Shown: positions 6,233 to 6,932 of the stretch, in pieces
How the letters are laid out: each line of letters opens with the position of its first letter
Position numbering within the stretch: the first letter of the stretch is position 1
From: Thermotoga neapolitana DSM 4359
Lineage (GTDB): Bacteria; Thermotogota; Thermotogae; Thermotogales; Thermotogaceae
DNA: 32,000 nucleotides
Assembly: GCF_000018945.1 (NCBI RefSeq)
Contig: NC_011978.1
Span: 496,729 to 528,728 of the forward strand
Direction of reading: 5' to 3'
Made by a program: the position numbers and the translations under genes
The notes under the pieces: generated by a model
Seen by the model: the letters and a program-made list of their open reading frames with translations, nothing else
What the model was told of the DNA's origin: nothing
The model's database searches: none

Positions 6233-6932
6233 CACCCTTATCCCACCCTTTCGGAGTGGGGGTGGACTGTATCTTCATCCAGTCCCCGGATCTCTTCGAG
6301 GGTTCGTTTCAACCTTTCGTGGTTTCCTGTGTTCATTTCCATGGCGATTTCCAGTATCTTGATGAGACCTTCTTTTGTGAGATGTTCTCCCCGTTCCATC
6401 ATTATGAGAATCCTTCTGAATTTTTTGAAGTCAACGTTTTTCTTCGTCTTTAGAGGATGTTTTTCGAAGAATTCTACAACTTTCTTCAAGCACGACCTTT
6501 TTCTGATCCTTAGTTCGTATCGATCGTCGTGGTTCTTCCGCACAACACCGCATCCGAAGAACTTCCTCAGTGCGTACAGAACCTGTATGTCACGCTTGTG
6601 CTGGACGATCCTGAATTCGGGGAGAACCTGATAACCCGTTTTCATGGTGCGATTTCTGCTGACACCAACGTAGAAACAACCTTCACCATCGACGAACCCA
6701 ACGACCCAGTCAGGCTTGAGATCCAAGATTTCCACCCCTTCTCACGGGGACTGGATGCCCGGCGTACAGTCTCTGAGGATCCCCCCTCAACGGGGTTTCC
6801 TGCGGATTGCCCAATCCCTTCCATTTTTACCTGGGCTGGCCGCAGCCCCCAGGTAGGAAGGGCTCTAAGGGCTTCCCCGCATACAGCCGGGTATTGCCCC
6901 ACAGGTTTCCCTGTGGGCAGGCAGCGAACGCT
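6233..6932 (-). mobile_element. group I intron in 23S rDNA (insertion after the E. coli U1931 equivalent)
   Basis: The universal sequence CGGCCGUAACUAUAACGGUCCUAAGGU stops at 6933 and resumes with AGCGAAAUUCCUUGUCGGGUAAGUUCCGACC at 6232. A P1 hairpin GGU|AGC-GUUC-GCUGCC places the last exon U in a U.G wobble. The last intron nucleotide is G. An 8-bp GAAA-tetraloop hairpin lies at 6898-6917. The interior is AT-rich and carries a LAGLIDADG ORF. AGCG is repeated at both junctions, so the boundaries are formally ambiguous by up to 4 nt. Confidence 0.85.
6238..6735 (-). CDS. LAGLIDADG homing endonuclease (single-motif, I-CreI-like size)
   Basis: 165-aa ORF inside the intron. There is one LAGLIDADG motif near the N-terminus (DWVVGFVDGEGCFYV) and a basic DNA-binding-like body (RIVQHKRD..., LKTKKNVDFKKFRRI). 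The start is GTG 6735, two codons after an in-frame TGA. Confidence 0.85.
   Translation of the reverse strand: MEILDLKPDWVVGFVDGEGCFYVGVSRNRTMKTGYQVLPEFRIVQHKRDIQVLYALRKFFGCGVVRKNHDDRYELRIRKRSCLKKVVEFFEKHPLKTKKNVDFKKFRRILIMMERGEHLTKEGLIKILEIAMEMNTGNHERLKRTLEEIRGLDEDTVHPHSERVG

Follow-up and report, generated by a model that had tools for sequence, protein, structure and literature searches.

The stretch of DNA analysed here (the window: 32,000 nucleotides (nt) of Thermotoga neapolitana DSM 4359, contig NC_011978.1, positions 496,729 to 528,728) contains a 23S ribosomal RNA (rRNA) gene that is interrupted in domain IV by an insert of exactly 700 nt (6233-6932, minus strand). The insert is almost certainly the self-splicing group I intron of T. 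neapolitana at site L1931 with its LAGLIDADG gene, which has already been published. Its position and boundaries, the fold with its covariation, the identity of its open reading frame (ORF) and its identity with the published element come from our own analysis, while self-splicing and maturase activity are taken from the literature, where they are reported. Intron, splicing, maturase activity and the crystal structure of the protein are all published, and the element is not a new one. It is an unusual element all the same; the bare sequence was enough to find it, to place its boundaries to the base and to attribute it to the right literature. The interrupted gene is the only 23S copy within the window, in an organism growing near 80 °C, and depends on the ribozyme for every ribosome. 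The ribozyme is built of GC-rich helices and stable tetraloops, and the intron gene overlaps its core, the same bases serving both RNA structure and protein.

Insertion site and boundaries

With the intron included, the 23S rRNA gene spans 3722 nt (5261-8982, minus strand, as are all parts of the single rRNA operon in the window). It matches the 2925-position Rfam model RF02541 from model position 1 to 2925 (2706 bits), interrupted by an alignment gap of about 700 nt in domain IV. The preliminary description had likewise judged the 3722-nt gene some 700 nt too long, with a break at 6933 and a resumption at 6232. A script search for the conserved flanks arrives at the same borders: the 5' exon (6933-8982) ends at 6933 with ...ACGGUCCUAAGGU, the 3' exon (5261-6232; beginning AGCGAAAUUCCUU...) starts at 6232 with AGCGAAAUUCC..., and exactly 700 nt remain between them. 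Numbered directly on the annotated E. coli 23S gene, the last base of the 5' exon is the equivalent of U1931, in agreement with the placement proposed earlier.

Sequence comparison alone allows five placements of the boundary, because AGCG forms the first four bases of both the intron and the 3' exon. A U.G pair at the 5' splice site and a 3'-terminal G of the intron coincide in one placement only, the one after U1931. The GC content is 45% in the part of the insert that is ORF only, 58-63% in the ribozyme parts and 63% in the exons. An earlier characterisation of the interior as AT-rich is thus correct relative to its surroundings and incorrect in absolute terms.

Two metagenomic contigs (L026 and L027) with neighbour genes 100% identical to those of the window, found through the radical-SAM gene, provide an intron-less comparator. 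The 23S genes of both (about 99.4% identical) carry the exact 60+60-nt ligated-exon sequence without interruption, and alignment to them leaves the clean 700-nt gap that had been predicted for an intron-less Thermotoga 23S. L026 (1-7842) differs from window positions 1-8542 at 20 sites, all of them in the rRNA operon (window 5233-8465), and shows 0 differences in its flanks of 5.2 kilobases (kb). L027 contains a run of Ns at its join near window 5760-5894. Four differences (window 7344, 7165, 7142 and 6065) are common to both contigs. The contigs may reflect either an allele that truly lacks the intron, in a recombinant rRNA operon, or an assembly that is chimeric within the rRNA genes. Because the differences are confined to the operon and L027 contains the N-run, the contigs are valid as an intron-less comparator only. 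Their use as proof of a presence/absence polymorphism within T. neapolitana was dropped, chimeric metagenome assembly or rRNA recombination being possible.

Fold of the ribozyme and its comparative support

The Rfam group I intron model (RF00028), whose use on the insert had been suggested in the preliminary description, matches positions 6242-6947 of the minus strand over its full length (model positions 1-253) with 64.6 bits (E 2e-14 for the whole window), above the curated gathering cut-off of 50 bits. Together with the junction of the intron-less comparator, this match defines the insert as a group I intron. The hallmarks of the class, i.e. a P1 helix with a splice-site U.G, a 6-bp (base pair) P10, a terminal G, P7 and a P4-P6 domain, are all found in the insert, and nothing in the sequence argues against the group I reading.

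P1 (6919-6936) was obtained by folding. It consists of 7 bp between AGGUAGC, with the exon-intron border after the U, and GCUGCCU, closed by the loop GUUC, and includes the shorter GGUAGC-GUUC-GCUGCC hairpin read earlier; its splice-site wobble pairs U6933 (U1931) with G6922. The guide segment UUCGCU (6923-6928) within this hairpin would form the P10 helix, 6 bp with AGCGAA of the 3' exon (6227-6232), as judged from the sequence of both strands. P2 is an 8-bp hairpin with a GAAA tetraloop, located exactly where it had been described (6898-6917) and supported by folding and covariation. P3 is formed by CCCGGC (6886-6891) and GCCGGG (6758-6763), both strands resting on covariation. The P4-P6 domain (6777-6881, from folding) comprises P4, P5, P5a, P5b, P5c and P6/P6a. 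P4 pairs UGCGGG (6876-6881) with UCCGCA (6801-6806), P5b is marked by the A-rich bulge UAAAAAU and P5c by a UGCG cap, P6 pairs GG with CC and P6a CCCC with GGGG. P7, part of the conserved Rfam core, pairs GACUGU (6766-6771) with ACAGUC (6265-6270); the guanosine-binding site is expected to lie at this helix. P8 consists of 10 bp between UCCAGUCCCC (6746-6755) and GGGGACUGGA (6278-6287) and holds the ORF in its loop. The segment J8/7 (UGAAGAU) and the 3' strand of P7 (ACAGUC) follow at 6265-6277, where the same bases also code for D-E-D-x-V-H. The P9 hairpin with its GAAA loop (6242-6260) is again supported by folding and covariation, and the intron closes with the terminal guanosine (omega-G) of the 3' splice site at 6233, the final G of the earlier reading. 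Folded alone, P1-P2 and P4-P6 both return the same helices as read, with z = -5.1 and z = -4.4, respectively, against dinucleotide shuffles and a minimum free energy of -61 kcal/mol for P4-P6.

Comparative support was drawn from 14 homologous introns, aligned with MAFFT after removal of the ORFs and without guidance by structure. With the structure defined on the window intron, 55 pairs in 10 helices were scored against controls in which the 3' partners were slid by 1-3 columns, and against 500 shuffles. Standard pairing occurs in 94.7% of cells (35-50% in the slid controls), two-sided, i.e. compensatory, changes in 33 of the 55 pairs (6-18 in the slid controls), and the covariation score reaches 0.494 (0.06-0.14 in the slid controls). 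On four of five measures none of the 500 shuffles reached the observed value; on the fifth, which counts further pair types, 65 of 500 did so. Covariation is strong in P2, P3, P5a, P8 and P9. Compensatory changes affect all eight pairs of P2 and five of the six pairs of P3, in which 100% of cells are paired, and all five tested pairs of P9 covary. P7 shows two-sided changes at two of its six pairs; its column pair 210/296 is AU in seven introns, GC in four and UA in three. P4 is invariant across the alignment, and the splice-site U.G is kept in 14 of 14 related introns. A foldable P3-P7 core, on which the preliminary description had made the group I assignment depend, is therefore present and backed by covariation.

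The encoded protein, splicing and mobility

The intron carries a single-motif LAGLIDADG homing endonuclease (HE)/maturase gene of 162 amino acids (aa) from a UUG at 6726 (6238-6726, minus strand). The mechanically delimited ORF (6238-6735) starts at a GUG at 6735 and has 165 aa. Its match to LAGLIDADG_1 (Pfam PF00961, cut-off 23.1 bits; E 1.1e-28, residues 12-109) bears out the claim that the interior carries a LAGLIDADG ORF. There is one LAGLIDADG motif, VVGFVDGEG, with the acidic residue conserved. A Shine-Dalgarno-like AAGGGGUG (6733-6740) lies 6 nt 5' of the UUG and can form six contiguous pairs with the 3' end of the 16S rRNA (...CACCUCCUUU); the GUG at 6735 falls inside it. The start codon is probably the UUG at 6726 and not the GUG at 6735, and the Shine-Dalgarno-like element would serve translation from it. 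A UUG start yields 162 aa, the same length as published for T. neapolitana (PMC1995217 Table 1). Over its entire length the 162-aa product matches chain A of PDB 5GKK with 100% identity, and it is likewise 100% identical to CAD89225.1/Q70PR2, deposited in GenBank in 2003 as 'putative homing endonuclease [Thermotoga neapolitana]'. The 165-aa form corresponds to XQT34484.1 of T. neapolitana DSM 4359.

The ORF begins in the loop of P8 and runs on into the core: the 3' strand of P8, J8/7, the 3' strand of P7, and P9 are overlapped by its last 47 coding nt and its stop codon. Among eight relatives, with identities down to 72%, the residues D-E-D-x-V-H-P of the overlap region do not vary. This conservation fits a double constraint from RNA structure and protein sequence, as also described by Haugen et al. 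for related introns (PMC1995217).

In most related introns (L001-L015) a GGAGG-like motif stands directly 3' of the 5' strand of P8 (window 6733-6755). The GGGG of the window motif could also form a local hairpin with the CCCC that ends the 5' strand of P8 (CCCC-GUGAGAA-GGGG), in competition with the long-range P8. By such local pairing, folding of the intron might possibly be linked to translation of the ORF.

Two variants of the protein, P0016 (90% HE identity) and P0020 (83%), come from other complete or near-complete genomes and are intermediate between the T. neapolitana/petrophila proteins (at least 94%) and those of Pseudothermotoga (about 72%). Cluster entries of 135 aa (P0003, P0012) start at an internal Met28 and are devoid of the LAGLIDADG motif; one of them does not differ from the window protein in any other way. 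These entries had been considered as decayed endonuclease genes, a view dropped in the light of the alignment with its start at Met28. ATG-preferring start calls or partial records are the more likely explanation.

In the proposed course of events, the intron would be transcribed within the pre-rRNA and fold into a group I core (P1 to P9, with P2 and P9 capped by GNRA loops and an extension of the P5abc type). A free guanosine, bound by P7, would attack the bond after U1931, held as U.G in P1. The 3'-OH of U1931 set free in this way would then attack the bond that follows the terminal G (6233), while the 6-bp P10 aligns the 3' exon, and exon ligation would join the helix 69 (H69) side of domain IV to the helix 71 (H71) side. 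Translated from the UUG and expected to be a homodimer, the 162-aa protein would bind and stabilise its own intron at high temperature, the maturase role known from published work. By homology, the homodimer would also cut intron-less 23S DNA at L1931 and drive homing, the intron-less site sequence (ACGGTCCTAAGGTAGCGAAATTCC; ACGGTCCTAAGGTAGCGAAATTCCTTG) being the putative target. What we infer here is that P10 forms, that translation begins at the UUG and that the protein cleaves DNA.

Published work agrees with this course in several respects. T. neapolitana, T. naphthophila and T. petrophila appear in Table 1 of Haugen et al. 2007 (PMC1995217) with L1931 introns of 700, 699 and 698 nt, respectively, all three coding for a LAGLIDADG protein of 162 aa. 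The same authors cite Nesbo and Doolittle 2003 for self-splicing, so that the literature attribution of the preliminary description proved correct. Active self-splicing of Thermotoga introns is attributed to Nesbo and Doolittle 2003 in both PMC1995217 and PMC3984707. Hausner et al. 2014 (PMC3984707), citing Mo et al. 2011 (Biochimie 93:533), describe the T. neapolitana protein as maturase-like: at high temperature it stabilises its intron and activates it.

Some points weigh against a self-splicing, mobile L1931 intron. The P1 alignment by Rfam is poor, and P1 as given here comes from sequence reading and folding. The support for self-splicing consists of the title of Nesbo and Doolittle and of two papers that cite it. 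The 'functional HE' column is blank for Thermotoga (PMC1995217 Table 1). Finally, the L1931 intron of Simkania was reported as unspliced (Everett et al. 1999, as given in reference 11 of PMC1995217), and family membership at L1931 is therefore no guarantee of splicing.

The blank column bears on the role of the protein. Splicing might be kept while the protein acts as a maturase only, without DNA cleavage, the element being a fixed and vertically inherited passenger; we regard this as unlikely, if by no means negligible. It agrees with the strictly vertical descent within nine Thermotoga strains that PMC1995217 ascribes, after an organellar acquisition, to Nesbo and Doolittle (PNAS 2003, 100:10806), with the lack of a demonstrated endonuclease activity in the list of PMC1995217 and with the maturase-like activity cited in PMC3984707. 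The HEs of T. neapolitana and of the T. petrophila group share 94% identity, which is consistent with selection for some function. On the other hand, the catalytic site is not visibly damaged, as VVGFVDGEG keeps its acidic residue, and homing targets exist, since a 23S allele without the intron is in circulation among populations that are very similar. Moreover, this site is occupied by close HE relatives in many unrelated phyla, an argument for recent mobility of the L1931 family.

The Simkania case is also the precedent within the L1931 family (again Everett et al. 1999 through PMC1995217) for a group I intron that stays unspliced in vivo and is kept in the mature 23S rRNA, as in Simkania negevensis. 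For T. neapolitana such a retention is very improbable. The published title states active self-splicing, and a cognate maturase is described in PMC3984707. The core is intact. GC-rich helices with UNCG and GNRA loops give it a thermostable design, and selection on it is both purifying and compensatory. The insert is positioned between H69 and H71, at the subunit interface. A retained insert at this place should be harmful where only one 23S gene is seen.

Bacterial 23S genes do carry intervening sequences; to our knowledge, these are short hairpins in other helices, without ribozyme cores or LAGLIDADG genes. An intervening sequence excised in the manner of RNase III, without exon ligation and leaving a fragmented 23S rRNA, is a vanishingly small prospect here and excluded for practical purposes by core, hallmarks and literature: the group I model is matched over its full length, P1 U.G, P10 and terminal G are all found, the core helices covary across phyla, and active self-splicing is on record in PMC1995217 and PMC3984707, both citing Nesbo and Doolittle 2003.

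Distribution, surroundings and closest known systems

A scan of species-representative genomes with the intron protein detected 22 loci with an HE relative, 55-72% identical, in Pseudothermotoga, Anaerolineae, Bacteroidota, Ignavibacteria, Clostridia, Actinomycetota, Gammaproteobacteria, Xanthobacteraceae and Latescibacteria. All 20 loci with readable flanks possess an insert of 624-731 nt between CCTAAGGT and AGCGAAAT, and the terminal G is present in the window intron and in all 20 relatives (21 of 21). The L1931 intron thus occurs in 20 genomes from at least eight bacterial groups, and a large protein search returned HE relatives by the thousands, with roughly 4000 from metagenomes. The view that rRNA group I introns are very rare in bacteria, as put forward in the preliminary description, does not hold for the L1931 family, which is sporadic on present genome data. 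The family is far wider in bacteria than the papers of 2003-2007 could see, and this breadth is the mildly new result of the present analysis.

In these bacterial genomes, the closest non-Thermotoga relatives have HEs 66-72% identical and a nearly identical ribozyme core. We tentatively suggest, at somewhat less than even chances, that Thermotoga received the intron directly from another bacterium, possibly a thermophile, and not from a eukaryotic organelle as was proposed in 2003. The breadth of the family could revise the proposed organellar origin and could justify a fresh phylogeny of rDNA introns.

The introns of Gammaproteobacteria, Xanthobacteraceae and Latescibacteria (L016-L022) are 624-712 nt long and lack P2. 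They end in ...CG or ...CUG instead of ...GUG, and in their P1 UA/UA replaces AGC/GCU beside the invariant GGU/GCC. In these features they resemble the P2-less Synechococcus form of Haugen et al. Several 23S genes of distant genomes display extra inserts, upstream of the L1931 intron in L006, L007, L011, L017, L019 and L020, and downstream of it in L004, L007, L011, L014, L017 and L019. One of these inserts ends with ...ATG directly before AACGGTCC, i.e. after U1917, and another begins after ...GGGTAAGT, around U1951-U1955. In some 23S genes, therefore, a segment of about 35 nt in domain IV apparently accommodates two or three inserts.

In the window, the rRNA operon further comprises the 16S rRNA gene (9225-10785), the genes for tRNA-Ile and tRNA-Ala in the 16S-23S spacer and the 5S rRNA gene (5102-5218), all on the minus strand. 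The neighbours on either side (1-5100 and 11017-17456) look ordinary. Likewise encoded on the minus strand are a TIGR04013 B12-binding radical-SAM protein (1921-3135), DNA polymerase III delta (3104-4093), PriA (11017-13224), a damage-control phosphatase (14098-14979) and a sodium-translocating pyrophosphatase (15285-17456). For the ORF at 4111-4728 the look-up gave no record. The sole tandem repeat in the window is 28 nt long (16758-16785).

Among known systems, the published L1931 intron of T. neapolitana (AJ556784; CAD89225.1/Q70PR2; 5GKK) is the same element, with 700 nt, insertion at L1931 and a 162-aa protein, and no difference from it is detectable as judged by length, site and protein. 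Over 11.1 kb the operon of the window agrees with the T. neapolitana DSM 4359 genome at 100% identity. The introns of T. petrophila (698 nt, AJ556786) and T. naphthophila (699 nt, AJ556785) share site and architecture, are 1-2 nt shorter and differ by a few amino-acid substitutions in an HE that is 94% identical. Introns at the same site are further known from Synechococcus C1/C9, Simkania negevensis, green-algal chloroplasts and mitochondria, and Acanthamoeba mitochondria (PMC1995217). Like the window intron, they have their LAGLIDADG gene, of the single-motif kind, in a peripheral loop, with an ORF that reaches into the ribozyme core (PMC1995217). The related cyanobacterial L1931 introns were called IC1-like by Haugen et al.; the Synechococcus intron is without P2 (PMC1995217), whereas the window intron has the 8-bp, GAAA-capped P2.

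On the protein side, the closest enzymes with solved structures are I-OnuI, I-LtrI, I-SmaMI, I-PanMI and I-AniI, fungal-mitochondrial monomers of about 300 aa with two fused domains, each of which aligns with the whole Thermotoga protein (E about 1e-50). I-AniI combines endonuclease and maturase functions (PMC2647301). In contrast to these two-domain I-OnuI-type enzymes, the Thermotoga protein is a single domain of 162 aa and should work as a homodimer.

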